Positions 1,986-29,266 of a DNA stretch of 39,587 nucleotides are shown piece after piece. Positions within the stretch are counted from its first letter, which is position 1, and the number at the start of each line of letters is the position of its first letter. Location: contig JBJTFZ010000167.1 of NCBI GenBank assembly GCA_046093685.1, positions 1 through 39,587 on the forward strand, given 5' to 3'. The stretch is from a bacterium. Its GTDB lineage: Bacteria > Bacteroidota > Ignavibacteria > Kapaibacteriales > UBA961. The notes below the pieces were generated by a model. It had not been told where the DNA came from, did no database searches, and saw only the letters and a list, made by a program, of their open reading frames with translations. A program made the position numbers and the translations under genes.

Positions 1986-2019
1986 CAAAGGCATCTCATG
2001 ATTGATTGGGATGCCTTTG
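1986..2019 (+). terminator. Hairpin downstream of rpsA (possible terminator or attenuator)
   Basis: A 10-bp perfect inverted repeat, caaaggcatc (1986-1995) and gatgcctttg (2010-2019), with a 14-nt loop. It sits 23 nt after the rpsA stop. The following T-tract is weak, so intrinsic-terminator status is uncertain. Confidence 0.35.
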
Positions 2020-2047
2020 TCACATACACTTTTCATGGAGCAATGAA

Positions 2048-9439: not shown

Positions 9440-10648
9440 ATGTCAAAGTGGAACGAAAATTGCACACTCCGAGGCATGAATATTGATCAATGGTTAGCCG
9501 TACCCGATGCCCCAATCAAAAGCTATTGGGAGCATACTGCATTCAACGAGGTTGACATATGCATCGTTGGTGCGGGTATCATCGGACTTTCTTCAGCTCT
9601 GGAGTGTAGAAAGCAATTTCCTGATGCATCGATTCTGATACTTGAGCAGGCACCTCATGGACATGGTGCAACAACCCGTAATGCAGGATTTGCTTGTTTC
9701 GGAAGCGCCACCGAATTATTGCATGACATTGATACTTTTGGCGAAGTGAATGCATTGGAGATTGCGCGCGAGCGATTCAAAGGATTGACCGCATTGTTGA
9801 AACGATGCACCCCATCAGCATTGCATTATGAGCATCTTGGTGGCGGCGAACTCATTCGTGAGCATGAAATGGATGTATTGGAGCGCATGGATGAAGTGAA
9901 TGCCTTTGCTGAAAAAATCACGGGTGACCCAGAAACATTCAGAGTGATGTCCTCACAGGAACAGCAAGCATTTGAATTTTCTGATGCTGTTCATGCCGTG
10001 ATCATGAATGCACATGAAGGACAATTGCATAGTGGGCATTTGCATGCAACATTGGAGATACTTGCGGGAGAAGCCGGCATCAGAATAGAACATGGAAGCG
10101 AAGTTGTTTCAGTGAATGATATTGATGATCATGGCTCCTTGCATGTTAAAACACAATTCGGCGAATATGCATTGAAGTCTAAAAGAATCATTCTGTGTAC
10201 AAATGCCATGTTATCCAGATTGGCTCCTATACTTGATATAAAGCCCGGACGCGGGCAAGTGATCGTGACTTCTTCCATACATGAACTTCCTTTTCAAGGT
10301 GCATTCCACATTGATGAAGGATATTATTATTTCCGATCACTTGGAGACAGAGTCTTGCTGGGAGGTGGAAGAAATTTGGATAAAACAGGCGAAGAAACAT
10401 TCGAATTCGGTCATTCAGCAATCATCATGAATGCGCTTGAGACAATGCTCCGCGAAGTTATTCTGCCAAACAGGAATTTTACCATCGATTATGCATGGTC
10501 CGGCTTGATGGGATTCACTCCGGACAAAAAACCAAGAGTGAAGAAATTGTCAAAACATGTGTACTGTGCTTTTGGCTGCAATGGAATGGGCATCGCTCTG
10601 GCTTCTCGTATTGCGGAACAGATTGCATCTTTACTGAGTGATTCATGA
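9440..10648 (+). CDS. FAD-dependent oxidoreductase (DAO family)
   Basis: N-terminal Rossmann dinucleotide motif ICIVGAGIIGLSSALE. About 400 aa, with a DAO-like C-terminus (GFGCNGMGIA). Substrate unknown. An alternative start at M13 (9476) is possible. Confidence 0.8.
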   Translation: MSKWNENCTLRGMNIDQWLAVPDAPIKSYWEHTAFNEVDICIVGAGIIGLSSALECRKQFPDASILILEQAPHGHGATTRNAGFACFGSATELLHDIDTFGEVNALEIARERFKGLTALLKRCTPSALHYEHLGGGELIREHEMDVLERMDEVNAFAEKITGDPETFRVMSSQEQQAFEFSDAVHAVIMNAHEGQLHSGHLHATLEILAGEAGIRIEHGSEVVSVNDIDDHGSLHVKTQFGEYALKSKRIILCTNAMLSRLAPILDIKPGRGQVIVTSSIHELPFQGAFHIDEGYYYFRSLGDRVLLGGGRNLDKTGEETFEFGHSAIIMNALETMLREVILPNRNFTIDYAWSGLMGFTPDKKPRVKKLSKHVYCAFGCNGMGIALASRIAEQIASLLSDS

Positions 10649-11580
10649 TGCAGTCAGTATTCTTTGCATATGTTTTTTTGATTTCGCTCGGAGTACTTTG
10701 GAAATTCATACCGAATCTTCCATCTCCTGCCACGATGCGAAATTCCATAAGTGCATTGGTGATTCACATCTTATTGCCACTGCTCACCATCTCGGTGATT
10801 GCTCGTGCTCCACTTGATCATGCCTTGTGGCAGATTCCCATGACGGGCGCATTCGTCACAATTGGGTGCTTGTTCATCGCATGGCTTGTATACAAGCTCA
10901 TGCAAAAGACGCTTTTCTCCAATATGGAGGATGGTACACTTGGAAGCATCATCATCGGGTCTGCTTGGTGTAATGCGACATATCTCGGTTTGCCTATTAT
11001 TACGGGCACATTTGGAGAGACTATGGCGTTTTTACCGGTGATATATGATGTTCTTGCCTTAACACCATTGCTTTGGACCCTTGGAGTACTGATTGCAGGA
11101 TATGCTCGTGGTGATTCGGAATCTCATTCCATGCGATTGAAGAATGCGCTAAAAAAAATTCTTTCGCTTCCACCAATCTATGCGGTGATATTCGGATTGA
11201 CAATGAAGTTTCTTCACATTGAATTGCCGGATTTTCTTTTGCAAGTTTCCGATATAGCCGGAAAGGCTGTTCCACCAATCATGATGATATCGGTGGGAAT
11301 GGCATTATCATTACCGAAAGTGAATACTTTCTTGATATTGATTCCGGCAATCATGATTCGATTGATGATTGCTCCGGCATTGGCATTTGCATGTACATTC
11401 ATCTTTAAAGTAGAACCATTGATAGGAAAAGCATTGATCATGGAATCCGGGATGCCTACAATGATATTGACAATGGCATTGATTGAGATGTATCAATTGG
11501 ATTCCGAAATACTTTCACATTTGATTGCCCTTACCACCATTGGTTCATTCATCACTTTGCAATTTCACTTGATCTCATGA
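10645..11580 (+). CDS. AEC (auxin efflux carrier) family transporter
   Basis: 311-aa polytopic membrane protein with about 10 hydrophobic segments and an AEC-like two-half organisation. Its ATG overlaps the upstream stop as ATGA (10645-10648). Confidence 0.8.
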   Translation: MMQSVFFAYVFLISLGVLWKFIPNLPSPATMRNSISALVIHILLPLLTISVIARAPLDHALWQIPMTGAFVTIGCLFIAWLVYKLMQKTLFSNMEDGTLGSIIIGSAWCNATYLGLPIITGTFGETMAFLPVIYDVLALTPLLWTLGVLIAGYARGDSESHSMRLKNALKKILSLPPIYAVIFGLTMKFLHIELPDFLLQVSDIAGKAVPPIMMISVGMALSLPKVNTFLILIPAIMIRLMIAPALAFACTFIFKVEPLIGKALIMESGMPTMILTMALIEMYQLDSEILSHLIALTTIGSFITLQFHLIS

Positions 11581-13208
11581 AAAAATTCTTGCTTATATGT
11601 TGTGCAATCTTGTCCATCACCGCAGGTGCGATTGCATTCAAGTTTTCCGATCAGGATTTGTTCTTGAAGATCACGAATGCCTTGGATCTTTTCGGTTCGG
11701 TGTTCCGTGAAGTCACATTACATTATGTGGATCCCGTGGATCCCATGAGTTTCGTGAATGATGGTACAAAAGCAATGTTGTCATCTTTGGATCCATATTC
11801 TGAGATACTTGATGATAGCGGAGAAGATGACATGGAGTTATTGTCTTCAAATACCTATACAGGTTTTGGGATGATCATCGGCGTGATTGATGATGAATTG
11901 ACCATCATGGATATCTATCCCGGCTACTCGGCGGAAAAGAATGGATTGAAACCGGGGGATCGAATCTGCTATGTGGATTCAACATTCGTATTGCATGATA
12001 CAACAAACATCATCCGATCATACAGTCGTGGTGCGGTTGGTGGGAAAGTCAGAGTGTCCGTGCTCAGACCCGGAAAATCAGACACCATCCATGTGACACT
12101 CACTCGTGAAACGATTCGCGTGCGTTCTCTTGGTGTGACCGGAATGGTGAATGATAGCGTGGGATATCTCAAAATCGAGAGATTTTCTTCGGGAACAAAA
12201 GATGAAGTGAAGCGCGTGCTTGCTCAATTTCGTCGGGAGAATCCAAAGTTTTCCGGTTTGATGATTGATCTTCGCGGAAATCCCGGTGGTTTATTGGAAT
12301 CTGCTGTTGATGTTTGTGATTTATTCGTTCCAATGAAATCCACAATCGTGATGACCAAAGGACGAAACACAGAAGAGGAAAGAGTATATGTATCTCAATA
12401 TCAACCCCAAGAACCCGATATTCCTCTTGCAATTCTGATTGATGGTGAAAGTGCCAGTGCAAGTGAAGTGGTTGCCGGTGCAATACAAGATCTTGACCGA
12501 GGAATCATCCTTGGTTCGCGTTCATTTGGTAAGGGCCTTGTGCAAACTGTTATGTCATTGCCCGGAAACAAATCGCTGAAACTCACCACTGCCAGATATT
12601 ATACACCTTCAGGCCGATGTATCCAAAGATTGCCCACATACACGGAGGACATTGCCGTGGAGGGTAAGGAAGTACTTTTCAAAACCTCAAATGGCCGACC
12701 CGTAACATCTCGTCATGGAATCGACCCTGATACAAGCTTTGAAGCTGAAAAGCCACTTAGACTATTGGAATTATTGGAAGAAGAGCAATTACTGTTCAGA
12801 TTTGTCAGTGAATACTGTGCAAATATCGACACACTGTCCAAAGACTGGAAAGCAGGCGACAAGGATTTCAAAAAACTGCAACAATGGCTCGCCAAACAAC
12901 AAGACTTGCCATTACCCGAACCATATTCCCTTTTGGATAAATCCGATAGTATTGCCCAAAAAAATGGATATACTCTCGGATATGCAAAGCAATTGAAAGA
13001 GATAAGAAATGCTTCCAAAAAGGATATGCTGAAGGGTTTGAACGCCATAAAATTGCAGTTATTGAGAAAACTTACCCTATCTGTGCAAACTCGGTATCGC
13101 AGTCATAAGGAATTGATACCATTACTTTTGCAAAATGACAATTTGATACAAAAAACAGCCATATTACTCTTGAATAAGAACTATGGAACATTATTGTCTC
13201 CCCGCTGA
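11577..13208 (+). CDS. S41 family C-terminal processing peptidase (PDZ-containing)
   Basis: N-terminal anchor or signal segment and a PDZ-like segment (GYSAEKNGLKPGDRI). S41 signature blocks DLRGNPGGLL, GESASASEVV (Ser nucleophile context) and SFGKGLVQ (Lys context). ATGA overlap with the upstream gene (11577-11580). Confidence 0.9.
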   Translation: MKKFLLICCAILSITAGAIAFKFSDQDLFLKITNALDLFGSVFREVTLHYVDPVDPMSFVNDGTKAMLSSLDPYSEILDDSGEDDMELLSSNTYTGFGMIIGVIDDELTIMDIYPGYSAEKNGLKPGDRICYVDSTFVLHDTTNIIRSYSRGAVGGKVRVSVLRPGKSDTIHVTLTRETIRVRSLGVTGMVNDSVGYLKIERFSSGTKDEVKRVLAQFRRENPKFSGLMIDLRGNPGGLLESAVDVCDLFVPMKSTIVMTKGRNTEEERVYVSQYQPQEPDIPLAILIDGESASASEVVAGAIQDLDRGIILGSRSFGKGLVQTVMSLPGNKSLKLTTARYYTPSGRCIQRLPTYTEDIAVEGKEVLFKTSNGRPVTSRHGIDPDTSFEAEKPLRLLELLEEEQLLFRFVSEYCANIDTLSKDWKAGDKDFKKLQQWLAKQQDLPLPEPYSLLDKSDSIAQKNGYTLGYAKQLKEIRNASKKDMLKGLNAIKLQLLRKLTLSVQTRYRSHKELIPLLLQNDNLIQKTAILLLNKNYGTLLSPR

Positions 13209-13315: not shown

Positions 13316-14803
13316 ATGAAAACTTGGATGTACTTTTTCTCTTTATTACTTGTCGGCATGGGGTATTGCAGTGAATTGCGTGGACAATTCACTCCCGATA
13401 GGTTTACGAATAGACCCCTCACTTTGATGAATGATGCAACCAGTGTTGGTTGGAATCCTGCATTGCTCGGCATGACAGGTGAGACGGATGCTGTTTTGGT
13501 GATTCCATATGACAGAACTTGGCAATCAACCAGACTCGTCGGAGGATTTTTCTCTTCTCAAGGGGTTGGACTTGGATATACTTCCATGAGAAATGAACAT
13601 CTGCCTGAATTCAGTTTCGTGCCTTGGAGTTTTTATGGTGGTTTGGGTGTGAAAGTGCCCGGCTACAATGTATGGACAGGCGCATCTTTCCGATATTCTG
13701 AATTTGGCGGAAGAACACTTCGATATAGTGGATCTGTTATCTACAATCCTTATGACAGATTATATCTATCTGCAGGGATTTCCAATCTGAATTCGGTGAA
13801 CACAAGAGACATCGTTTATCAATTGTCAACAACATATACTCCTTGGGATTGGCTCTCAATGTATGGCAGATTGCAATATTGTTCGGAAGCACCAATCTAT
13901 TTTGAAGAAAAATATTCATCCGAGTTCGGCATCAGTGCCGCCATCAATCGCAGAAGAATCATAGCCTCATTTTCCGCAAATCCTGTTGCACGCGAAGCTC
14001 GCTTTGGATTGGAATTCATATTTGACGTGTTCTCATTTGGTTCTTTGAATGATGCATCAACTTTGAATAGCGAGAGTAGAAGATTCAATGGTGGAAATAT
14101 CTTGCTCAGAGTGAATCATGATAATTTTTATGCATATGATCATTACAGATATCCGAAACAGATTTGCAAAACACAGCGTTGCAAAACTCGTGGATGCGAA
14201 GGTGAGCGATGCGGAGATGCACTTTGTCCTGCATATCGATGTGTGAATGTGGATTGCTCCGGCAAACCATGCACTCGCAGATCATGCAAAGGCTTGGTTT
14301 GTCCTTATGTTCGCAAGGGAAGCGGTCATATTCAATCTCCAGTGGAATTTGATCAAAGATCAGGGAAAGCCCATGGAAATTGTTCTCATTGTCAACATGG
14401 AAATACCGGAACTGGTCATACAGGAAATGTAGATGGTGAACATTCCATGAACTATGAAGATACATCACATGCTGAAGTGTATGTCGGTGGTGACCATAAG
14501 CATAATGTAGGATGTCCTCATTGTGGTTGCGTCTTGCCGGGCCATGAAAGAGCTACACCAATCAATAATGGTTCAACAGGAATTCAGCAGAATGCCGGGC
14601 CGGAAAATGGTAAAGGACCGGGTGAGAATACACAAACCAAGCAAAAGGGTGAAAAAATAAAAGAAAATACAATTGAAGAACCGGAAGAAAGTATAGAAAT
14701 TGAAGAAATAGATGGAACTGATGAAGAAGAAGCCGATTCAACTGAAACCGAGGAAGATTCTTTTGGTGAAGAAGATGAATCAGAAGATGAGCCGATACTT
14801 TGA
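13316..14803 (+). CDS. P1: secreted barrel-like-module protein with Cys ladder, His/CxxC-rich tract and polyacidic tail (uncharacterised)
   Basis: ATG 13316 gives a signal peptide (MKTWMYFFSLLLVGMGYC). A ~250-aa module is shared with the next two genes (FTNRPLTLMNDATSVGWNPALLG ... RFNGGNILLRV). It is followed by (C-X4)9-C at 14165-14302, a His-rich segment with CSHC and CPHCGC, and a D/E-rich C-terminus. It has no OmpA_C domain. Confidence 0.8.
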   Translation: MKTWMYFFSLLLVGMGYCSELRGQFTPDRFTNRPLTLMNDATSVGWNPALLGMTGETDAVLVIPYDRTWQSTRLVGGFFSSQGVGLGYTSMRNEHLPEFSFVPWSFYGGLGVKVPGYNVWTGASFRYSEFGGRTLRYSGSVIYNPYDRLYLSAGISNLNSVNTRDIVYQLSTTYTPWDWLSMYGRLQYCSEAPIYFEEKYSSEFGISAAINRRRIIASFSANPVAREARFGLEFIFDVFSFGSLNDASTLNSESRRFNGGNILLRVNHDNFYAYDHYRYPKQICKTQRCKTRGCEGERCGDALCPAYRCVNVDCSGKPCTRRSCKGLVCPYVRKGSGHIQSPVEFDQRSGKAHGNCSHCQHGNTGTGHTGNVDGEHSMNYEDTSHAEVYVGGDHKHNVGCPHCGCVLPGHERATPINNGSTGIQQNAGPENGKGPGENTQTKQKGEKIKENTIEEPEESIEIEEIDGTDEEEADSTETEEDSFGEEDESEDEPIL

Positions 14804-14850
14804 AGTCATTTCATCCATGATGAAAGATTGTTTTATCAGATAATTTCGCC

Positions 14851-14878
14851 GAGGCTTTCTACAAAATGTAAAGGCCTC
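14851..14878 (+). terminator. Imperfect hairpin after P1 (possible weak terminator)
   Basis: gaggcttt...aaaggcctc inverted repeat with one bulge, 48 nt after the P1 stop, followed only by tt. Weak. Confidence 0.25.
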
Positions 14879-15004
14879 TTCAATGAGTTGTGTTATGTCC
14901 GCTTATAAAGGGGATGTTTTCATAAGATTTATTCTACAAAATCTTTGTTGGTTTATTTTATTACGATATCATTGAATGTACAGTAGCGATTTTAAGGTCA
15001 ATAC

Positions 15005-16570
15005 ATGAGAAAATGTATACTGATTCTTTTTTGTGTATGTGGTTTTGCGAATAATGTATTTGCTCAATCATTATTTACTCCTGAACGCTTTACGAATCGT
15101 CCATTGACATTGTTCAATGATGCTACTTCGGTTGGTTGGAATCCCGCATTATTGGGACTGACCCCAAATTCAGATCTGGTTCTTGTTCTTCCATATACAC
15201 GCAACTTTGACTATAATGGACAGGTCGGAGGGTTTTACTCTCAAGATGGGATCGGATTGGGAATCACCTCGCAAAAAAATACTCAATTGCCCTCCAATCC
15301 CTATACCCCTTTTAGTTTCTATGGTGGATATGGATTCCCCATCATCGAAAACAATACATGGCTCGGTGCCTCTTTGCGCTATTCCGACTTTGGAACGAGC
15401 GTCATTCGATTCAATGGATCCTTGATTCATAAACCAATTGATGATCTTCTCATATCTGCAGGGATGACAAATTTTAATTCTGTGAATTCCGCAGATTTGT
15501 TGTACGGTTTTTCATTGGTCTATTCAGTGTTTGATTGGCTTTCCGTATTGGGAAAACTACAATTCACTTCTGATTCCACTTTGTTTGGCGGAGAGCATCA
15601 TTCCATGGAATTCGGTCTCTGCGCCGGAGCCCGTAATAATGCTTTCATAACTTCATTCATGGTCAATCCGGTATTGAGAGAGGCGCGATTGGGAATTGAA
15701 TTCACTATTGGTGCAATTTCACTCGGATTCCTCAATGATGCTTCAACCGTAAATAATTCATCCGGAAGATTCAATGGTGGAAATTTGTTGCTACGCTTTC
15801 AGCCCGATGGTGCTGAACCGGAAAATGATGAATTACCTGAGTTGATTGAAGAAATTCATGTTCATCACATAATAGACACGGTGCAAATCATCCATACCGA
15901 TACCGTGGACAGGTATCATGATTGCGGTATATGTAACCATGACTGTGTTCATGTGATCTGTATATTTTGTCATGGAATCACATGCATCCATTGCACTGCA
16001 TGTCCAAAATGTCCTGATTGTAAACCGGGAACCGTTCCTGTCGCACCACCTGTCGCACCACCTGTGACACCACCAGTGACGCCGCCTGTGACGCCGCCTG
16101 TGACGCCGCCTGTGACACCACCTGTGACACCACCTGTGACGCCGCCTGTAACACCACCTGTGACGCCGCCTGTAACACCACCTGTGACGCCGCCTGTAAC
16201 ACCACCTGTGACGCCGCCTGTAACACCCCCAACATTCATCATTGAGGGATGTGAATATCCATATAATGAATGTCAACCCTATGATGATTGTCCGCCAAAG
16301 GTTGATGAAATCATTAAGTTCTTGATGAACTTTCCGGATACATGCATTACCATCATTGCACATACTGACAGTATAGGAAAAGATGAAGATAATCTTAGAC
16401 TTTCTGAGTGTAGAGCAGAATCAATCAAGGAGATATTGATTGATGCAGGAATTGAAGAGTGGCGTATAAGCACTGTAGGGCGGGGTGAGTGGTATCCACT
16501 TACTTCGAATTCCACACCTGAGGGCAGAAGAAGAAATCGCAGAGTGGAGTATATGTTTGGTCCATGTTGA
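15005..16570 (+). CDS. P2: OmpA-family protein with N-terminal barrel-like module, Cys/His cluster and (V-[AT]-P-P)16 hinge
   Basis: Signal peptide MRKCILILFCVCGFANNVFA. The N-module is about half identical by eye to P1. A 10-Cys cluster lies at 15923-16021 and the proline-rich tandem repeat at 16040-16231. The C-terminal OmpA_C-like peptidoglycan-binding motif set is present (IIAHTDSIG..NL.LSE.RAESIK..L...G......GRGE..P......EGRRRNRRVE). Confidence 0.85.
   Translation: MRKCILILFCVCGFANNVFAQSLFTPERFTNRPLTLFNDATSVGWNPALLGLTPNSDLVLVLPYTRNFDYNGQVGGFYSQDGIGLGITSQKNTQLPSNPYTPFSFYGGYGFPIIENNTWLGASLRYSDFGTSVIRFNGSLIHKPIDDLLISAGMTNFNSVNSADLLYGFSLVYSVFDWLSVLGKLQFTSDSTLFGGEHHSMEFGLCAGARNNAFITSFMVNPVLREARLGIEFTIGAISLGFLNDASTVNNSSGRFNGGNLLLRFQPDGAEPENDELPELIEEIHVHHIIDTVQIIHTDTVDRYHDCGICNHDCVHVICIFCHGITCIHCTACPKCPDCKPGTVPVAPPVAPPVTPPVTPPVTPPVTPPVTPPVTPPVTPPVTPPVTPPVTPPVTPPVTPPVTPPVTPPTFIIEGCEYPYNECQPYDDCPPKVDEIIKFLMNFPDTCITIIAHTDSIGKDEDNLRLSECRAESIKEILIDAGIEEWRISTVGRGEWYPLTSNSTPEGRRRNRRVEYMFGPC
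16040..16231 (+). repeat. In-frame tandem repeat of 16 x 12 bp encoding V-[AT]-P-P; the last 8 units form 4 x 24 bp
   Basis: Read directly from the sequence: 2 x gtcgcaccacct, gtgacaccacca, 3 x gtgacgccgcct, 2 x gtgacaccacct, then (gtgacgccgcct gtaacaccacct) x 4, the last copy ending ccccca. There are no spacers, so it is not a CRISPR array. Confidence 0.97.
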
Positions 16571-16581
16571 TGGTTCTTGTG

Positions 16582-16589
16582 TAAGTTTG
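16582..16589 (+). promoter_or_regulatory. TAAGTTTG, an exact match to the Bacteroidetes-type -7 promoter consensus TAnnTTTG, upstream of P3
   Basis: The octamer lies 30 nt upstream of the P3 ATG (16619) in the 48-nt P2-P3 gap. It is only meaningful if the host uses Bacteroidetes-like sigma-A promoters, and a chance match is quite possible. Confidence 0.2.
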
Positions 16590-16618
16590 CACATATCCGT
16601 ACACAAACTATATGCCGT

Positions 16619-19600
16619 ATGAAAGTATTTTACCGAATTCTGTTCAGTTTCATAATATTGTTGTGTGTGAATGATGCATCCGCACAATTGACCTCTCATG
16701 CTCTTTCGAATCGTCGCATCGGTTATGCCAATGATGCATCAGCCGTGAGTTGGAATCCGGCTTTATTGGGGATGGTGCAAGGGACAGACTTACTTTTTGC
16801 TTCGATGCATGACAAGCAATTCAATGTGATGCCTCAATATGCCGGTTTTCTGAAATTTGGTGGATTGGCCGGTGGAATCATCCTTCCAACAGATTCTGTA
16901 TCTCTGTTTCAACCTGGAATTCCAATGACGCTTCATGCGGGCTATGGATTTCCACTCATCAGTGATTATGTATGGATAGGGGGAGCCGGAAAATATTCTG
17001 ATGATGGAACGGTGAATGTTCGATATGCAGCATCATTGATGCTATCTCTTCATTCAAGTTTTTACCTTTCAGGCGGTATCGACAATCTCTATACAAGAAA
17101 TGAAAATCATAGAGTGATGTCTTTCATGGGTGCATATTCACCGCTTGATTGGCTCACAATCCATGCGAGAGTTCTGTATTCGCAAGATTCAGTGTTGTTC
17201 GCAGGCAAGGAGATTTCACCCGAACTAGGAGTAAGTGCAGGAGTGTTGAGCAATTTCCTTGTTGCTTCTGCATCCTATAATCCCACATATAATCAAATGC
17301 GTCTCGGTTTGGAAATGAATCTCGGACCCATTTCCGTTGGTACGCTCAACAATTTCAATACGGCTTCTGGTAATGCAGATAGTTATGGTTATGGTGTGGC
17401 ACTTGCCCGACTCAATTTTTCGGGACATAAAGCCATAGCCCCCGCACGCAAAGGTCTGCCGTCATTTATTTGCCATCCCGAAGAATTACGTTGGCAACCC
17501 AATTTCCCAAATGGTAAAAAAGAATTGTTCGGCATTATGAAGGAACATGGTGGTGAACATGAAGACATAGCCGATGACTTGGAGTCAGATCTCAAAAATG
17601 CAGATCATGTGAATGACACCATACATGCCAGACATTATGCCCGCTTTGAAACGAAGGCAACCACCGGAGGAATTCCACAAAGGCTTCTTGGACATAAAAA
17701 TCCTGATTATGCAGTGATTGGTCTTGCCAATGATACTACAAAGGATATGATGTCCATGAAGGTGCGAGTTCAGGACAAAACAGGAAGAATGATTGCAAAT
17801 GTCAGTGATTCTGCATTCACTGTTTCAGACACAACAATGCGCATAGTATCTGTAATGCAAGCGGTTGCAGATAATCCTGTACCGGTTGACTTTGTGATAT
17901 TGATGGACTGTTCCGGTAGCATGGGAGATGAGATTGATGAAGTGAGAGCAAATGTCTCATCATTTGTGCAAAAACTCAAAGGAGGGGGCATTGATTATAA
18001 TCTCGGTTGTATTCTCTATGGTGAGTCCATTTTTGGAATCTTGGAACCCACACCGGATCTGAATCAATTCACCACTTTTTTCCAGCAGGCCGGTGCAATA
18101 GGCATGGATGAAATAACATCCACTGCCATTGAAAGAGCAACCCAGATGAATTTAAGACCGACGGCTCAAAGAATTTTCATTCTGATAACCGATGAATGCG
18201 CGATTCAAAAAAATGGAAGCAATACTGAAATATCTCTTCTCAAGAAATTATGGGATAAGGGGATAAAATTATACTCAGTCGTCAACACCGCTGAAAACAA
18301 TGGTGCGGTCATGACAAGGCTAAGTCTGGGAAAAGAATTCAGCATTCGCCAACCATTCACTTCAATTCTCAATGAAATTGCAAAAGATGTAAGTACAACT
18401 TATGATGTTCGATTGCAACCGAAAGAAAAACCACTTCCACCAAAAGTAACTGTCTTGAAAGGATTGATCAGAGGTGATGACGGAGAAATCATCAAAGGGT
18501 CACTTTCACTGTCCATGCTCACTCCTACACCAATGATAGACAGCATCAATGCTAGGTCCCATGGATATTCATTTGTCATTCCAAATCATGCTCCTTCAGA
18601 GTTGTCTGTGAAGGCCGATGGATACAGACCATATTCCGAAATTGTTGATTTTACTTATGTGATGAAGGGTGATACGCTTATCAAGGACATTATCCTCAAG
18701 AAGAGAATACGAACAATCGTAGCGAATATGGTTGATACTTTGGGGAATACTCTGATCGGAGAAATGAAGTTATCGGATAATGTCACGATGCAAACAACAA
18801 CTATGATACCCGCATCCACATCTGGATATCACGGAGTGATGATTCCTCCCGGAAAAGCATATACCATGAAAGGAAATGTATCAAATTATTCATGCGAAGA
18901 ATTGCAAATCAATGAAGATGTCTTTAAACAATCTGACACCGTTGTACTTTCAATGCGATGCAGAGAGCAAGATGTTTTTATTTCAGGATATGTGGTTGAT
19001 GAAAATGGCATGTTCACCAAGAGCACATTGATAATTGAAGATGTGTTAACAGGCATGAAAGTCAGCACGATTGAAACCGATGCCTCCGGATATTATTCCA
19101 TTCTTCTCAGGCCGGGTCGTGATTACCGTTTTACACCCATGAAAAAAGATTTCATCCCCGAATCAAAAGAATTTATCGCAAGTCAATTGAAGCCCGGAAT
19201 GCAGTTGTCGCATAATCCTCAGTTGACATCAATCAAACAAGCGATTTCAAAAGGAATGACATTTTCGCTTAAGAATATATTCTTCGATTCAAATAAATCA
19301 GACATAAAACCGGAAAGTGAAGCGGAACTTCAAAAATTATTGAAATTCATGAATGATAATCCATCTGTTTGCTTAGAAATAAGTGCTCATACCGATGATG
19401 TGGGATCAGTGAATGACAATGAATCTTTGTCGCAAAGAAGAGCTGAATCCGTTGTGAAATATTTGAATTCGAATGGCATTGAACCAAGGAGACTTACTGC
19501 AAAGGGCTATGGAGAACTCAAGCCCATCGCGGACAATAAAGAAGAAGCAGGTCGCCTGCAAAACAGAAGAGTTGAATTTGCACTCATCAATTGCAAGTGA
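16619..19600 (+). CDS. P3: OmpA-family protein with N-terminal barrel-like module, vWA domain and three CarboxypepD_reg-like repeats
   Basis: ATG 16619 gives signal peptide MKVFYRILFSFIILLCVNDASA. A divergent copy of the shared module follows (NDASAVSWNPALLGM ... GVALARLNF). The vWA domain carries a MIDAS DCSGS motif at 17906-17920 (VDFVILMDCSGSMGDEI). Three repeats at about 18452-19200 have the I.G.V.D..G...TD..GYY...PG.Y pattern, the clearest being ISGYVVDENG..TDASGYYSILLRPGRDYRF. A canonical OmpA_C domain lies at about 19252-19597 (NIFFDSNKSDI...ISAHTDDVGS...N..LSQRRAESV..YL...G....L.AKGYGE..P......EAGRLQNRRVEF). Confidence 0.85.
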   Translation: MKVFYRILFSFIILLCVNDASAQLTSHALSNRRIGYANDASAVSWNPALLGMVQGTDLLFASMHDKQFNVMPQYAGFLKFGGLAGGIILPTDSVSLFQPGIPMTLHAGYGFPLISDYVWIGGAGKYSDDGTVNVRYAASLMLSLHSSFYLSGGIDNLYTRNENHRVMSFMGAYSPLDWLTIHARVLYSQDSVLFAGKEISPELGVSAGVLSNFLVASASYNPTYNQMRLGLEMNLGPISVGTLNNFNTASGNADSYGYGVALARLNFSGHKAIAPARKGLPSFICHPEELRWQPNFPNGKKELFGIMKEHGGEHEDIADDLESDLKNADHVNDTIHARHYARFETKATTGGIPQRLLGHKNPDYAVIGLANDTTKDMMSMKVRVQDKTGRMIANVSDSAFTVSDTTMRIVSVMQAVADNPVPVDFVILMDCSGSMGDEIDEVRANVSSFVQKLKGGGIDYNLGCILYGESIFGILEPTPDLNQFTTFFQQAGAIGMDEITSTAIERATQMNLRPTAQRIFILITDECAIQKNGSNTEISLLKKLWDKGIKLYSVVNTAENNGAVMTRLSLGKEFSIRQPFTSILNEIAKDVSTTYDVRLQPKEKPLPPKVTVLKGLIRGDDGEIIKGSLSLSMLTPTPMIDSINARSHGYSFVIPNHAPSELSVKADGYRPYSEIVDFTYVMKGDTLIKDIILKKRIRTIVANMVDTLGNTLIGEMKLSDNVTMQTTTMIPASTSGYHGVMIPPGKAYTMKGNVSNYSCEELQINEDVFKQSDTVVLSMRCREQDVFISGYVVDENGMFTKSTLIIEDVLTGMKVSTIETDASGYYSILLRPGRDYRFTPMKKDFIPESKEFIASQLKPGMQLSHNPQLTSIKQAISKGMTFSLKNIFFDSNKSDIKPESEAELQKLLKFMNDNPSVCLEISAHTDDVGSVNDNESLSQRRAESVVKYLNSNGIEPRRLTAKGYGELKPIADNKEEAGRLQNRRVEFALINCK

Positions 19601-24234: not shown

Positions 24235-26022
24235 TTATCTCAATTGTAAAGCGCAAAGGTGAGCATATACACCGTTTTTTGCAAGAAGTTCATCATGTGT
24301 TCCGTATTCAATGATTGTACCTTTGGAGAACACTGCAATTGCATTGCAATCTTTGATTGTTGAAAGCCTATGCGCAATGATGATTGTCGTTCGGGAGGTC
24401 ATCAATCGTTCCAATGCTTCGCTGATCAAGTGTTCAGAAGAAGAGTCAAGAGAACTTGTAGCTTCATCTAAAATCAAAATAGGTGGATTTTTCAAAATGG
24501 CGCGAGCGATGGCGATTCTTTGTCTTTGCCCACCTGAAAGAGTTATGCCTCTTTCTCCGACAATGGTTTCATAGCCTTCGGGAAATCGTTCAATGAATTC
24601 TTTTGCATTAGCAAGCTCTGCGGCATGTTGAATGTCTTCAATGCTCGCATGTATATCACCATAGCGAATATTATCTGCTATGGTCCCGCCAAAAAGCACG
24701 ATATCTTGTGGTACGATTCCGATTGATGCTCGAATACAGGCCAAACCAAGTTCGGAAGCAGGAATGTCATCATACAATATCATTCCTTCTGTCGGCTGAT
24801 AAAATTGCTGAATTAAAGAAGCGGTGGTGCTTTTCCCCGCACCGCTTTCACCCACGAATGCTATTCTTTGTCCGGATTTGATATCCAAATCGATTGATTG
24901 CAATGCCGGAATATCTGTGCGAGAAGGATAGCTGAATGACACATTCTTAAGTGTGACGGAATGCAGAGGCCTGAACATTGAGGTATCCTCCACTTCGAGC
25001 ATGTCCTCAGTATTGGTATCCAAGATTTCTTTTAGTCGCACCGAAGCTCCCAAAGCTTTTTGAATTTGTCCGAGCAGTTCAGCGAAGCTTCCCATTGCAC
25101 CGCCAACAAACATTGCATAAATCAAGAATGTGGCGAAATCTCCGATCGTGATGGTGCCTTGCTGAACGAGACTGCCCCCATACCAAATGACACCGGCTAT
25201 ACCACCAAAGAAGGTGAATAATATGAATGAAACAAATGCCGATCTCAATCGAGCTGTTCGTATTGCAAGTTCAATCACATGTTTGAGTGCTCCTTTATAG
25301 CGTTCTTTTTCATATCGTTCATTGGTGAATGATTTTACGCTTGCGATTGCCTGTAAGGTTTCTTCGATGATTGTTGCCGAAGATGCAAGCGCATCTTGTG
25401 TTTTCATGCTTTGTTTTCGGATGAATCTGCCAAACATGACGGCTATCAGAACCAAGATAGGCAATGCCAAGAGTACCGGCAATGCAAGACTTAGTCCGGC
25501 CGTCAGAATGAAACCAATGCCTCCGATGAGAAAGATTGTTTGCCGAAGCAATTCAAGAATCGTGAAGGCGAATGTTTCTTGTATTTGTGAAAGATCCGAA
25601 GAAAGCCTGGATGACAATTCGCCTACCCTTCGCTCGGCAAAGAAATGCATCGGGAGGCGGATGATGTGATTGAAAGCCTTTGTCCGTAATTCAGCCAAGG
25701 AAGTCTCTGTTATGCGAGCAATCGTCATTGATGCAAAAAAACGGATGGTGCTTTGCACTGCGATGAGGATCAACAATCCGATTGCAAGCATTCCCGGTGA
25801 TGGCGAAATCCCAAAGAATGAGTGCGAAGTTTCGGGATGAATGAAACCATCCAGCATGGTTCCAATCATGGCAGGGAAAATGAGCCCTATGGATGCCGTT
25901 ATCAACATCGTTACCAAGGCCACGATGCCTTTGAAAGCATAAGGTTTATAAAAACTCAATAAAAATCTGATTTGAGCACCGGCTTCGCCACGGTCCAATC
26001 TTTGTGAGGGTTCTTTTTTCAT
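24235..26022 (-). CDS. ABC exporter, fused permease/ATPase (MsbA / ABCB-type)
   Basis: Six-TM N-terminal domain followed by an NBD with [23 protein letters not shown] and ILILDEATSSLD. ATG 26022 (MKKEPSQ) is preferred over the 26088 extension. Confidence 0.88.
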   Translation of the reverse strand: MKKEPSQRLDRGEAGAQIRFLLSFYKPYAFKGIVALVTMLITASIGLIFPAMIGTMLDGFIHPETSHSFFGISPSPGMLAIGLLILIAVQSTIRFFASMTIARITETSLAELRTKAFNHIIRLPMHFFAERRVGELSSRLSSDLSQIQETFAFTILELLRQTIFLIGGIGFILTAGLSLALPVLLALPILVLIAVMFGRFIRKQSMKTQDALASSATIIEETLQAIASVKSFTNERYEKERYKGALKHVIELAIRTARLRSAFVSFILFTFFGGIAGVIWYGGSLVQQGTITIGDFATFLIYAMFVGGAMGSFAELLGQIQKALGASVRLKEILDTNTEDMLEVEDTSMFRPLHSVTLKNVSFSYPSRTDIPALQSIDLDIKSGQRIAFVGESGAGKSTTASLIQQFYQPTEGMILYDDIPASELGLACIRASIGIVPQDIVLFGGTIADNIRYGDIHASIEDIQHAAELANAKEFIERFPEGYETIVGERGITLSGGQRQRIAIARAILKNPPILILDEATSSLDSSSEHLISEALERLMTSRTTIIIAHRLSTIKDCNAIAVFSKGTIIEYGTHDELLAKNGVYAHLCALQLR

Positions 26023-26227
26023 TCCTGTTCGGATAAGTGTCAATAGGCACAAAGTACCGACATTCCATAAAGTTCGGTGATTCCGCAAGGAATTCTCATT
26101 TTTGTGCGATTCTTTGCAAAATTACGATGAATTCACACCCCCGCATTCATGAGTTTTCATTTCTTTTGAATATGCCACGAGGCTCGGGAATTATCCGAAA
26201 TAACCATGAACATTGAATGGAGTAATA

Positions 26228-26557
26228 ATGGCCGCTTTTTATGAAGTATCGATGCATGTTGATTCTTCCATTGCCGAAGAATGGGTTGAATGGATGCGGA
26301 CGGAGCATATCCCGGATGTCATGAAAACGGGGGTGTTCCTGTCATGTCAATTCCTGCGAGTGATTGAGCCCGCCATTGAGGGAAATGATTCATTCAGAAT
26401 AACCTATGAAGCCAAGAACCTTTCTGCAATTCAGGAGTATCGCATTTCATTATCCCCTGAACTTCGCAAAAAACATGATGAACGCTATGGCGAAATGTCT
26501 AGTGGTAGTAGAAGAGAAATGATAACTGAGTTTACATATAGAATTCCGGAGGCATGA
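26228..26557 (+). CDS. Small conserved protein, DUF4286-like (tentative)
   Basis: About 109 aa from ATG 26228, with GGAG 6 nt upstream. The pattern YEVSMHVD.SIAEEWVEWMR.EHIPDVM.TG.F matches my memory of DUF4286-type proteins but is not verified. Its stop overlaps the next start as ATGA (26554-26557). Confidence 0.55.
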   Translation: MAAFYEVSMHVDSSIAEEWVEWMRTEHIPDVMKTGVFLSCQFLRVIEPAIEGNDSFRITYEAKNLSAIQEYRISLSPELRKKHDERYGEMSSGSRREMITEFTYRIPEA

Positions 26558-27225
26558 TGGACGGAGTTCATTGTTATGTTCTTCCCGATGCACAGCATTT
26601 GCGCATACTTGCGATTGAAGCAGGACCTGTTGCAACCAATGGGTATATGCTCATGGATATGAACATGCATTCTGCCATTATCATTGATGCTCCTTATCAA
26701 AGCGTGAATGCATTTTGTTCATTTGCGGAAGAGAACGGTCTTCACATCACGGGTTTATGGCTTACTCATTCCCATTGGGATCATACCGCCGATGCCGAAA
26801 TCTGTGCCGAAAAGGGTTGGGATATTCTCATCCATCCGGATGATGAATATAGATTATTGGATCAATCTGCTCATACGGTGTGGCCTTTGCCATTCACATT
26901 GGGGAACATCATTCCAACAGGAAGAATCAATCATGGTGATATTCTCACATGCGGTGATTGGAATTGCATGGTTCTTCATACTCCGGGCCATACGGAGGGT
27001 GGAGTGTGTTTCGTGGATAGCATGCATTCATGTGCATTTGTTGGAGATACATTGTTTTCAGGGAGCATCGGAAGAACGGATTTGCCGGGCGGAAATACAG
27101 ATACATTATTGGCTTCGATTGCAGAACAACTCATGAAACTATCTGATGACATCACAGTATTTCCGGGGCACGGACCCTTGACGACGATCGGTGAAGAAAG
27201 ACAAAACAATCCCTTTTTACAATGA
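26554..27225 (+). CDS. MBL-fold metallo-hydrolase (glyoxalase II-like)
   Basis: Contains the THSHWDH metal-binding motif, HTPGHTEGG, and a downstream D and H (GDTLF..SIGRTD, FPGHG). Confidence 0.85.
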   Translation: MMDGVHCYVLPDAQHLRILAIEAGPVATNGYMLMDMNMHSAIIIDAPYQSVNAFCSFAEENGLHITGLWLTHSHWDHTADAEICAEKGWDILIHPDDEYRLLDQSAHTVWPLPFTLGNIIPTGRINHGDILTCGDWNCMVLHTPGHTEGGVCFVDSMHSCAFVGDTLFSGSIGRTDLPGGNTDTLLASIAEQLMKLSDDITVFPGHGPLTTIGEERQNNPFLQ

Positions 27226-27244
27226 AATCGGAACAGCAAAAACA

Positions 27245-27763
27245 ATGATGAACAACTATTCATATTTCAGTAATAGACTACTCACCTTCCTTTCCATAAT
27301 TTGCATCTCATTGTTGTCGGGATGCTATTCTTTCACGGGCGGATCCATACCGGATCATCTCAAGACAATCAGTCTTTCGCCGGTTCAAGATAATAGCGGT
27401 TTTGGAAATCCTCGATTCAGAGATGTGCTCACGAGGAGATTGCTGGACAAATTCCGTAATGACAATACCCTCGTGCTTGTGGATGCCAATGGCGATGCGC
27501 AATTGCAATCAACAATCGTCAGAATTGAAGATGTGGTTGTGTCTGTAAGCCCCGGCGAAGTTGAAAGAGAGAGAAGAATCACTGTATCGGTCGAAACAGA
27601 ATACACAGATATTGTCAAGAAAAAACAAGTCTGGAAAAGAACATTCTCAAACTTTCAGGTGTATCTCATAAGCCAGGGGCAGCAAGCAAGAGAGGATGCG
27701 GTAATCGCAGCTCTTCAGCAAATAGGCGAAGATATTCTTCTTGCCGTGGTATCGGGATGGTAA
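27245..27763 (+). CDS. LptE-like outer-membrane lipoprotein (tentative)
   Basis: Lipobox LLSGC followed by YSFTGGSIP..LKTISL, the pattern I associate with Bacteroidetes-type LptE family proteins. About 170 aa. Start at ATG 27245 rather than 27191, which overlaps the upstream gene. Confidence 0.55.
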   Translation: MMNNYSYFSNRLLTFLSIICISLLSGCYSFTGGSIPDHLKTISLSPVQDNSGFGNPRFRDVLTRRLLDKFRNDNTLVLVDANGDAQLQSTIVRIEDVVVSVSPGEVERERRITVSVETEYTDIVKKKQVWKRTFSNFQVYLISQGQQAREDAVIAALQQIGEDILLAVVSGW

Positions 27764-27814
27764 TCCCGCATTTCCGCGGTAACCATTCACTCACAATTTA
27801 ACCTAACAGATACC

Positions 27815-29266
27815 ATGGAAGTTGCAATACTCATTGTGTACTTTATTTCCCTCAGCATACTTTTTGCATTCGGTCTTCATGGGTTGGTGATGATTTATTA
27901 TTATCATAAAACCCGTGCCTATGCGACTCCCAATCTTGAACTTCCAACTGAATTACCAATGGTCACCGTGCAATTGCCGGTGTTCAATGAAGTATATGTC
28001 ATTGAGCGCCTCGTCAATGCCGTGTGTGAAATGGAATATCCAAAAGACAAACTTGAAATTCAATTACTTGATGATTCCACCGACGAAACCGTTGAGGTTT
28101 CGCGTCGCTTGGTTGCCGAATGGGCAGCTCGTGGTTTCGACATCAAACATATTCATCGCATTGATCGCACAGGCTTCAAAGCAGGTGCATTGAAAAGCGG
28201 ACTTGAAAAAGCAAAGGGTGAATTCGTCGCGATATTCGATGCGGATTTTGTTCCCAAGAAAGATTTCTTGATGAAAACCATCCCTCATTTTCGTAATGAT
28301 GGTGTTGGCATGGTGCAAACTCGCTGGGAGCATCTGAATGAGGATTATTCCTACTTGACCCGCGCTCAAGCATTGGCTCTCGATGGACATTTCGTCATTG
28401 AACAACAAGTGCGCAATAAAGCTGGATTCTTCATCAATTTTAACGGAACGGCCGGAATTTGGAGGAAGTCTTGCATCGAAGATGCAGGAAATTGGCATGC
28501 AGACACATTGGCCGAAGATTTGGATCTCAGTTATCGCGCTCAGCTTCGTGGCTGGAAATTTGTTTTTCTCAATGATGTGACTTCACCAGCTGAATTGCCC
28601 GCAGATATCAATGGTCTGAAAACTCAACAATTCCGTTGGACAAAAGGAGCCGTTGAAACAGCCAAAAAATTATTGCCGATGGTATGGAGTTCTTCACTTC
28701 CCCTCAAAGTGAAATTGGAGTGCACCGTACATCTAACGAGCAATATCGTTTTCCCATTCATTCTTCTCACAGCATTTTTGAATGTGCCTTTGGTGGTAAT
28801 CAAAAACACAGTGGAAGGATATGATTCAATCTTCACCATGATGGGAATTTTCGTATTGGCATCTGTCAGCACATTCATGTTTTACATGTATGCCCAAAGA
28901 GCGATTCATCTGGATTGGAGAAGAAGACTCATGTTATTCCCCGTATTCATGGCCGGAAGCATGGGTTTTGCCGTGAATAATACAAAAGCGGTGTTTGAGG
29001 CATTGACAGGAAAGAAATCAGCATTCCTTCGTACCCCAAAATATAAGATTGTCGGCGCAGAAGGTGATTGGAAGAAAAAGAAATATGTCCAGAAGAAAAT
29101 CGGTGGTGCCGTATTCATGGAATTGTTCTTCACGATGTATTTCATTGTGGGTATCTCCATTTCCTTGTTCTATTTGGAAATTGCCGCCATTCCATTCCAA
29201 TTGCTCTTTTTGGCAGGATTTGGAACTGTTGGTGCATTATCCCTGCGTCATGCTTTGGAGAGCTAA
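27815..29266 (+). CDS. Family 2 glycosyltransferase, processive cellulose-synthase-like (CslA/BcsA-type core)
   Basis: N-terminal TM segment. The catalytic D, D, D, QxxRW set is present: LPVFNE, LDDSTDET, AIFDADF, LAEDLDLSYRA, QQFRWTKG. A cluster of 4-5 C-terminal TM helices follows. Confidence 0.85.
   Translation: MEVAILIVYFISLSILFAFGLHGLVMIYYYHKTRAYATPNLELPTELPMVTVQLPVFNEVYVIERLVNAVCEMEYPKDKLEIQLLDDSTDETVEVSRRLVAEWAARGFDIKHIHRIDRTGFKAGALKSGLEKAKGEFVAIFDADFVPKKDFLMKTIPHFRNDGVGMVQTRWEHLNEDYSYLTRAQALALDGHFVIEQQVRNKAGFFINFNGTAGIWRKSCIEDAGNWHADTLAEDLDLSYRAQLRGWKFVFLNDVTSPAELPADINGLKTQQFRWTKGAVETAKKLLPMVWSSSLPLKVKLECTVHLTSNIVFPFILLTAFLNVPLVVIKNTVEGYDSIFTMMGIFVLASVSTFMFYMYAQRAIHLDWRRRLMLFPVFMAGSMGFAVNNTKAVFEALTGKKSAFLRTPKYKIVGAEGDWKKKKYVQKKIGGAVFMELFFTMYFIVGISISLFYLEIAAIPFQLLFLAGFGTVGALSLRHALES

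Follow-up and report, generated by a model that had tools for sequence, protein, structure and literature searches.

A miniature FadL-like barrel shared by three paralogous, putative outer membrane-to-peptidoglycan tethers of an uncultured Kapaibacteriales lineage

Introduction

Three consecutive genes on a contig of a bacterium from the Kapaibacteriales (Bacteroidota, Ignavibacteria, UBA961; assembly GCA_046093685.1, contig JBJTFZ010000167.1) encode predicted envelope proteins, here called P1, P2 and P3, which begin alike and end differently. Which fold does the common part have, what might such proteins do, and do the three belong together? To answer these questions we analysed the whole stretch of 39,587 nucleotides, referred to as the window below. 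An earlier note, made from the sequence alone, had read the locus as three paralogues with one barrel-like N-terminal module and three unrelated C-terminal parts, generated by duplication and domain change and perhaps assembling into a multi-component complex.

Our analysis indicates that P1, P2 and P3 are probably lineage-restricted paralogous outer-membrane proteins that tether the outer membrane to peptidoglycan in the manner of OmpA and OprF, and that are held in the membrane by a FadL-like barrel. New here is an unannotated, lineage-restricted FadL-like barrel that anchors OmpA-type tethers in a rapidly evolving paralogue cluster; the tether principle itself is known.

Results

P1, P2 and P3 share one N-terminal module

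As the earlier note had reported, the genes are consecutive plus-strand open reading frames (ORFs) of the window with intergenic gaps of 201 and 48 nt (Table 1). BLASTP comparison revealed that the three proteins have an N-terminal module of approximately 245 residues in common, which is located directly behind the signal peptide. The modules of P1 and P2 are 51% identical (262 amino acids, E 1e-90), and that of P3 matches P1 with 29% (E 4e-37) and P2 with 32% identity (E 1e-44), so that the estimate of about half identity for P1 and P2, with P3 being more divergent, was correct. The module had also been said to end on an aromatic residue, which is wrong for P1, whose last strand ends LLRV. 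A search of the six-frame translation of the window with hidden Markov models (HMMs) found exactly three copies of the module, in P1, P2 and P3, and an OmpA_C domain in P2 and P3 only.

Gln is the first mature residue at all three predicted cleavage sites (RG/QF at 13379-13390, FA/QS at 15059-15070 and SA/QL at 16679-16690), and it is likewise found at the mature start of the orthologues. According to the "Q-rule" of Bacteroidetes, N-terminal Gln is cyclised to pyroglutamate following cleavage by signal peptidase I; the mature starts of P1, P2 and P3 are consistent with this rule.

The module is predicted to be a small barrel of the FadL type

Structures were predicted with AlphaFold for the P2 module, using an alignment of 7 sequences, and for full-length P3, using 14 sequences. 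The model of the P2 module (pLDDT 65, pTM 0.66) contains 14 β-strands as assigned by DSSP, and the same number is found for the barrel in the P3 model, where barrel and N-terminal NPA segment reach pLDDT values of approximately 78-87. The models support a transmembrane β-barrel, as had been proposed; a soluble fold was not predicted. Along the chain of the P3 model the strands are joined in turn by short connections (2-4 residues) and longer ones (4-15 residues), which is the pattern expected of periplasmic turns and surface loops in a barrel with both termini in the periplasm. Since the longer connections have 15 residues at most, the predicted surface loops are very short.

A Foldseek search of the PDB with the P2 module returned 8gl6_F (E 1.9e-8) and 6h3i_F (E 2.8e-7) as top matches with TM-scores of 0.57-0.60, followed by OmpG, FadL (FadL chains E 5e-5) and general porins. 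8gl6 and 6h3i are SprA type 9 translocon entries; their chain F is 345-367 residues long and is a protein that we take to be PorV. The strongest conservation in the family lies at the mature N-terminus and reads TNR-x6-NDA[ST]AVGWNPALLG. R32, D39, N46 and P47 do not vary among 28 diverse members, and the consensus at position 48 is Ala (A48). When the 28-sequence module profile is aligned with E. coli FadL by hhalign, DASAVxWNPALL falls on DDAGNVSRNPALI of the FadL hatch, in register over 115 columns, with the NPA motif of the module on the NPA of FadL (residues 58-60). The score of 29.5 lies 5.6 standard deviations above that of 100 shuffled FadL sequences (14.8 ± 2.6, maximum 21.9). A hallmark of the FadL family is the NPA motif of the N-terminal hatch, and this motif is essential for FadL gating (PMC8407342). 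The sole Pfam signal in the module, Toluene_X at residues 17-62 of P3, covers the same segment as the NPA box and was obtained for one of the 28 members.

We therefore place the module in the FadL superfamily, based on the 14-strand models, the Foldseek matches, the alignment of the NPA motif on the FadL hatch and the sub-threshold Toluene_X signal, and conclude that it is a miniature, divergent member of this superfamily that is new to the Pfam, NCBIfam and PDB sequence models. The resemblance of the N-terminal box to PorV- and FadL-type barrels, pointed out in the earlier note, is thus borne out by fold and profile comparison. When each of the 28 modules was scanned against Pfam at E ≤ 10, the Toluene_X match was accompanied only by OMP_b-brl at E 0.27 in one member, and PorP_SprF (PF11751) gave no match. 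The barrel part of P1, P2 and P3 matched no NCBIfam model at E ≤ 1, and a PDB sequence search with profiles of three and of 28 modules gave no meaningful match. These searches leave the barrel unrecognised, in agreement with the view that the combination corresponds to no named system.

The same resemblance raises a second explanation, according to which the barrel is a working FadL-type channel for hydrophobic compounds with lateral release through the barrel wall, and the OmpA_C tail does no more than position or regulate this channel. In favour of this, conservation in the family peaks at the motif needed for gating, the Foldseek matches include FadL structures, and P1 of the window keeps the barrel without a peptidoglycan anchor (see below). 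The module is, however, far smaller than FadL (approximately 245 versus 420 residues), its short predicted surface loops offer no obvious space for the low- and high-affinity binding sites of FadL, and Toluene_X stays below the Pfam threshold. Genes for the degradation of fatty acids or aromatic compounds are not conserved near the family, neither in the neighbourhoods of its loci nor in the window. Moreover, FadL-family proteins of the PorV/PorP-like type bind cargo proteins of the type 9 secretion system (T9SS) (PMC9143113), and therefore membership in the family does not imply transport. We consider a channel function unlikely.

P2 and P3 end in an OmpA_C domain

Both P2 (59.2 bits) and P3 (75.8 bits) match the Pfam family OmpA (PF00691) well above its cut-off of 27.2 bits. 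They contain the TD...RA motif, which reads AHTDSIGKDEDNLRLSECRA in P2 and AHTDDVGSVNDNESLSQRRA in P3; the Asp of TD and the Arg of RA are presumably the residues that contact the diaminopimelate (DAP) of peptidoglycan, as in the OmpA-DAP structures of A. baumannii. In fold searches the OmpA_C domain of P3 matched the peptidoglycan-binding domains of OprF and A. baumannii OmpA (3td3/3td4/3td5) as well as PorE's C-terminal domain. Because of the Pfam scores, the motif and these fold matches, we predict that the OmpA_C domains bind peptidoglycan.

Between barrel and OmpA_C, P3 carries a vWA domain (VWA, PF00092, 35.0 bits versus a cut-off of 23.8). Its metal-ion-dependent adhesion site (MIDAS) consists of DCSGS (430-434), the Thr of EITSTA (498-503) and the Asp of LITDE (522-526), and these residues are kept in the homologues. 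The conservation of a complete MIDAS across the family suggests that the vWA domain may have a metal-dependent partner in the periplasm. Pfam sees one CarboxypepD_reg domain in P3 (788-845), and an iterative search brings out three CarboxypepD_reg-like (CRD-like) repeats. The inventory of C-terminal domains that had been proposed for P2 and P3 is therefore correct. A fold search with full-length P3 was dominated by pilus adhesins combining vWA and immunoglobulin-like (Ig) domains and by OmpA_C domains, and added nothing on the barrel.

A second sample, a JGI metagenome, contains an approximately 99% identical locus (L052) with the same P1+P2+P3 trio. For P2 and P3 the ratio of non-synonymous to synonymous polymorphism (pN/pS) between the window and L052 is 0.10-0.11, which indicates purifying selection on both.

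The hinge of P2 is encoded by 15.3 copies of a 12-nt repeat and is two repeat units (8 amino acids) shorter in L052 (7698-9239). The repeat also yields three spurious antisense ORFs (15833-16363, 15970-16242 and 15978-16235). In one relative, represented by an ENA contig (L002, 952-2670), the P2 orthologue is split inside the barrel into ORFs of 188 and 377 amino acids, so that either the gene is a pseudogene or the assembly is faulty here; MetRS follows directly, and P3 is missing. P3-type proteins have a lone conserved Cys just behind the barrel with a Trp approximately 6-7 residues further on (DADCNPRAIKW, DAGCTSWAIKW; FICHPEELRW at approximately residue 285 in the window). This Cys...Trp pair marks the start of the predicted periplasmic part, and no obvious partner cysteine was seen.

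P1 has lost the wall anchor of its orthologues

P1 shows the Cys ladder, the His-rich tract and the acidic tail that the earlier note had listed; Pfam finds no domain anywhere in the protein, and HMM searches find no OmpA_C, so that P1 itself falls outside the OmpA family. The Cys ladder matches no Pfam family. Its core pattern, C..YPGCPGRKCTR...YRCIR.NCPG..C, is kept in the orthologues of both P1 and P2, and the ladder could serve as a rigid spacer stapled by disulfides, or be a metal site. At the position of the His/Cys-rich tract the P1 orthologues show (GHGDHP)-like repeats, and the tract is a possible periplasmic metal-binding spacer.

All P1 orthologues elsewhere are longer (534-673 amino acids) and continue through an acidic linker into OmpA_C (P0005, P0007, P0008, the 627-aa gene of L001 and the genes of L003-L016). 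The stop codon of P1 in the window is located exactly at the junction of linker and OmpA_C: the protein ends ...EDESEDEPIL, and L001 reads ...EAEDPLSEN... followed by OmpA. A remnant of OmpA_C was not found in the 201-nt gap between P1 and P2 by three-frame translation, tblastn or blastn against the orthologous regions. Since L052 carries the same 495-aa allele, the shortening is real and not an assembly error. P1 of the window is thus a truncated derivative of the longer, OmpA_C-bearing type of orthologue with 620-670 amino acids. We also considered P1 as a dead pseudogene and did not adopt this explanation, since the barrel is intact and keeps every residue that is invariant in the family, and L052 has an allele of identical length. 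Four amino acid differences separate the P1 alleles of the window and L052, all of them in the tail; pN/pS for P1 is 0.46, a value without power because it is based on only 8 differences.

The comparison with orthologues contradicts the claim of three unrelated C-terminal parts. Besides the OmpA_C found in all P1 orthologues, the P1 orthologue P0007 and the P2 orthologue P0006 align in a single high-scoring segment pair that runs through barrel and Cys ladder up to approximately residue 320, and again over OmpA_C with 37% identity. Because P1 orthologues end in OmpA_C and orthologues of P1 and P2 share the Cys ladder, all three proteins derive from one plan, barrel, spacer and OmpA_C. P2 of the window has lost most of the ladder and expanded the proline repeat, and P1 has lost the anchor.

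Table 1. Positions of P1, P2 and P3 and of their parts in the window.
Feature	Position	Strand	Remarks
P1	13316..14803	+	495 aa; signal peptide 1-23, barrel module, Cys ladder, His-rich tract, acidic tail; no OmpA_C
P1 barrel module	13385..14113	+	residues 24-266; conserved NDATSVGWNPALLG box at 13430-13471
P1 cysteine ladder	14165..14302	+	residues 284-329; ten Cys at exact five-residue spacing, (C-x4)x10
P1 His/Cys-rich tract	14324..14548	+	residues 337-411
P1 acidic tail	14675..14803	+	ends where orthologues run on into OmpA_C
P2	15005..16570	+	521 aa; signal peptide 1-20, barrel 21-265, Cys/His cluster 305-340, PPVT hinge 341-410, OmpA_C 432-512
P2 barrel module	15065..15799	+	14 strands in AlphaFold model
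P2 proline-rich (PPVT)n hinge	16025..16234	+	residues 341-410, ~70 aa; 12-nt tandem repeat in DNA at 16044-16227
P2 OmpA_C domain	16298..16540	+	residues 432-512; TD...RA motif residues 452-471
P3	16619..19600	+	993 aa; signal peptide 1-22, barrel 23-267, disordered linker, three-helix bundle 300-343, beta-sandwich 357-415, vWA, three CRD-like repeats, OmpA_C
P3 barrel module	16685..17419	+	14 strands, pLDDT ~78-87; NPA box 16730-16771
P3 vWA domain	17879..18418	+	Pfam residues 424-573; MIDAS motif intact
P3 CarboxypepD_reg-like beta-sandwich repeats (three)	18434..19186	+	residues 606-676, 685-765, 773-856
P3 OmpA_C domain	19280..19567	+	Pfam residues 888-983

The family is restricted to one lineage and varies in copy number

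A HMMER scan of 1.84 billion cluster representatives found the module in approximately 40 of them, the majority being proteins of 850-1150 amino acids with the architecture of P3. Among 185,579 species-representative genomes 48 loci with the module were identified, all 48 in metagenome-assembled genomes (MAGs) labelled Kapaibacterium, Kapaibacteriota, Ignavibacteria, Chlorobiota or "Bacteroidota bacterium", a few of the bins being oddly labelled. NCBI names the proteins only "OmpA family protein" or "hypothetical protein". A complete protein consisting of the barrel only was not seen among the proteins read from the cluster-representative and genome sets; short module matches that were not read are most likely fragments. 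The full-length members read all end in an OmpA_C-like domain, except P1 of the window (with its 99% identical twin P0001) and P0016, a 615-aa representative that stops behind its vWA domain.

The clades of P1 and P2 form a sister pair in a neighbour-joining tree of 61 modules, and their joint sister group is the P3 clade from the same lineage; this whole group is nested inside the wider diversity of P3-type modules. By this topology the P3 type appears to be the ancestral form; it is widespread and usually occurs alone. We think that tandem duplication and replacement of the spacer gave rise to P1 and P2 from it. The proposal of duplication followed by domain change fits this tree.

In close relatives the locus is flanked by genes for a DAO oxidoreductase, an AEC transporter and an S41 protease upstream and for MetRS downstream, with proteins approximately 50-95% identical. 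The slot between S41 and MetRS contains P1 only in L010 and L013, P1+P2 in L002, L008 and L016, P1+P3 in L003-L007, and P1+P2+P3 in the window and in L052. More distant genomes have a single P3-type gene whose surroundings are unrelated; in five MAGs there are two such genes, not linked to each other. The latter (L020/L047, L022/L045, L023/L043, L024/L046 and L037/L042) encode proteins of 1100-1156 amino acids and represent a longer subfamily, in which the OmpA_C-like ends are more divergent and extra spacer repeats are presumed.

This distribution bears on the suggestion of a multi-component complex, in its strict form one obligate hetero-oligomeric tether made of P1, P2 and P3. The genes are arranged in tandem on the same strand with just 48 nt between P2 and P3, the same trio occurs in the second sample, and there is a precedent in Porphyromonas gingivalis, where the OmpA-like paralogues Pgm6 and Pgm7 form heterotrimers and stabilise the outer membrane (PMC6112661). 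The variable content of the S41-MetRS slot in close relatives, whose flanking genes are 75-95% identical, however, argues for individually dispensable paralogues and thus against an obligate trio, and so do the distant genomes with a single P3-type gene or two unlinked ones. We regard such a complex as very unlikely.

No partner gene is conserved beside the family

Clustering of the neighbouring ORFs at approximately 36 distant loci revealed no partner gene conserved beyond single lineages. Therefore, no function can be deduced from operon context, and a functional tie to the S41 protease receives no support. The earlier note had raised a possible synteny of the trio with this protease: it is adjacent in near relatives only, within the syntenic DAO-AEC-S41...MetRS block, and the trio content varies there. 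We rejected a functional link, the adjacency being local synteny of one lineage.

The neighbourhood also matters for a third explanation, in which the proteins are T9SS accessories of a fused PorP-PorE type: the PorV/PorP-like barrel would bind cargo with a C-terminal domain (CTD) at the surface, and the tail of CRD and OmpA_C would fix the assembly to the wall. The host lineage lies within Bacteroidota, and chain F of the SprA translocon complexes, which we take to be PorV, is the best fold match of the barrel. The C-terminus of P3 resembles the part comprising CRD and OmpA_C of two NCBIfam models, with E 1e-34 to 1e-35: the PorE model NF052230 (119.9 bits versus a cut-off of 600, model positions 416-601 only) and the model of the OmpA-like outer-membrane integrity protein CHU_0125, NF053607 (123.7 bits versus a cut-off of 620, positions 452-638 only). 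As these bit scores show, P3 stays far below the PorE cut-off, and on the barrel side neither PorP_SprF nor an NCBIfam model gave a match; the motif of the module is of the FadL NPA type. Genes of the T9SS and for CTD proteins are absent from the window and are not conserved beside the family at approximately 40 loci. The bridge itself is documented: FadL-family barrels of 14 strands include PorV and PorP-like proteins, and PorE, a lipoprotein with CRD and OmpA_C, connects PorP to peptidoglycan (PMC9143113). P2 and P3 share this layout and miss the models of both families; they are therefore like a fused PorP-PorE and belong to neither family. A role as T9SS accessories seems improbable to us.

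The rest of the window contains housekeeping genes, coding for ribosomal protein S1, a MetH/MTHFR fusion, aldehyde dehydrogenases, TrpRS, MetRS, ABC transporters, LptE and glycosyltransferases. The fusion (2006-3871) is a 621-aa ORF combining homocysteine S-methyltransferase (PF02574) and methylenetetrahydrofolate reductase (PF02219) domains. The genes for the DAO oxidoreductase, the AEC-family transporter and the S41/PDZ protease (9440-13208) share 4 nt at each of their junctions, and this overlap suggests translational coupling; their order is kept in all close relatives. Downstream of the trio (24235-29266) envelope-biogenesis genes are found, coding for an ABC exporter with fused transmembrane domain, an LptE homologue (27191-27763) and a family-2 glycosyltransferase; in distant genomes there is no linkage of these genes with the trio. 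In one sub-lineage only (L031, L035, L036, L041 and L049) an ORF of 170-230 amino acids with a lipoprotein-like signal is located 34-690 nt upstream of the P3-type gene, and it has no counterpart in the window.

Discussion

We think that these proteins work in the following way. The Sec signal peptide would be removed, leaving an N-terminal Gln, and the next approximately 245 residues would form a small FadL-superfamily barrel of 14 strands that serves as membrane anchor, its lumen probably plugged by the conserved N-terminal NPA segment. Because the number of strands is even and the chain ends in OmpA_C, the remaining part would hang into the periplasm, where OmpA_C would bind peptidoglycan non-covalently. 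In this way the proteins would staple the outer membrane to the wall, with the spacer setting the reach and adding binding capacity. The spacer of P3 would consist of a helix bundle, an Ig-like sandwich, a MIDAS-competent vWA domain and CRD repeats (two or three in the P3 type), and that of P1 and P2 of the Cys ladder together with a low-complexity or proline hinge. Having lost OmpA_C, P1 of the window cannot bind the wall by itself.

Several observations weigh against tethering by a FadL-like barrel. The sequence similarity to FadL is weak, with an hhalign probability of 12%, and the Toluene_X match (PF03349) reaches 15.6 bits versus a cut-off of 29.7. Every genome carrying the family is an uncultured MAG. 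P1 retains an intact barrel without OmpA_C; therefore, the barrel has, or recently had, a role in this lineage that does not depend on wall binding. Finally, the conserved NPA hatch and the MIDAS-intact vWA domain suggest that the proteins may do more than tether passively.

The last point leads to a bolder version, to which we give little credence: the family might be a natural "Rosetta-stone" fusion of a FadL/PorP-type surface barrel with a PorE-type wall anchor of CRD and OmpA_C and a MIDAS-competent vWA domain, acting as a cargo- or ligand-binding envelope hub in which the NPA plug couples surface events to a wall-anchored scaffold. Such a hub may be related to the T9SS or may be an independent invention. 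If it exists, the family is more than a passive staple.

The catalogue of outer-membrane barrels gains a family that is missed by Pfam, NCBIfam and PDB sequence models. If P1, P2 and P3 are OmpA/OprF-like tethers, as we favour, the 14-strand barrel of the FadL type, already reused in Bacteroidota as PorV and PorP, would serve also as the anchor of OmpA-like wall tethers. The layout of barrel, CRD and OmpA_C on one chain supports the idea, taken from PorP-PorE of P. gingivalis, that such barrels are for coupling to peptidoglycan. The locus is in addition a compact case of fast outer-membrane-protein turnover, since duplication, spacer replacement, change of repeat length and loss of the anchor are all found among close relatives. 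The reach of these findings is limited by the uncultured lineage and by the familiarity of a mechanism based on barrel and OmpA_C. A literature search for Kapabacteria combined with outer membrane or T9SS found nothing relevant.

Comparison with known systems

Like OmpA and OprF, P2 and P3 combine an N-terminal barrel, a periplasmic linker and a C-terminal OmpA_C domain that scores above the PF00691 threshold, and they would have the same role as tethers. E. coli OmpA has a proline-rich hinge between barrel and OmpA_C, and P2 has a proline-rich hinge at the same place. In contrast to OmpA and OprF, the module is predicted to be 14-stranded and FadL-like and not an 8-stranded barrel of the OmpA_membrane/OMP_b-brl type, the spacers are far longer and contain vWA, CRD repeats or a Cys ladder, and P1 is devoid of OmpA_C.

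With FadL and TodX the module shares the predicted 14 strands and the D-A-x-x-V-x-x-N-P-A-L box, which aligns with the NPA of the FadL hatch. It differs by its small size, its very short predicted surface loops and the C-terminal periplasmic extension. FadL barrels with periplasmic extensions exist elsewhere: several FadL-like outer-membrane proteins of Treponema pallidum (TP0856, TP0858 and others) have C-terminal periplasmic domains (PMC8407342), so that there too a domain has been added behind a 14-strand barrel with an NPA hatch. The treponemal extensions are helical bundles, however, and not OmpA_C, vWA or CRD, and the lineages are unrelated, without detectable sequence similarity to the family described here. 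Pgm6 and Pgm7 are, like P1, P2 and P3, paralogues from Bacteroidota with OmpA_C; their membrane parts are unlike those of P1, P2 and P3, and the copy number of our family varies among relatives.

PorV and PorP together with PorE resemble the family in that a FadL-family 14-strand barrel of Bacteroidota is linked to peptidoglycan through CRD and OmpA_C. They differ in that barrel and wall anchor are located on one chain in P2 and P3. Unlike PorE, P3 has a signal peptide of the signal peptidase I type, is not a lipoprotein and contains no TPR or WD40 domains. Taken together, OmpA and OprF are closest to the family in working principle, and PorP-PorE of the T9SS is closest in architecture.

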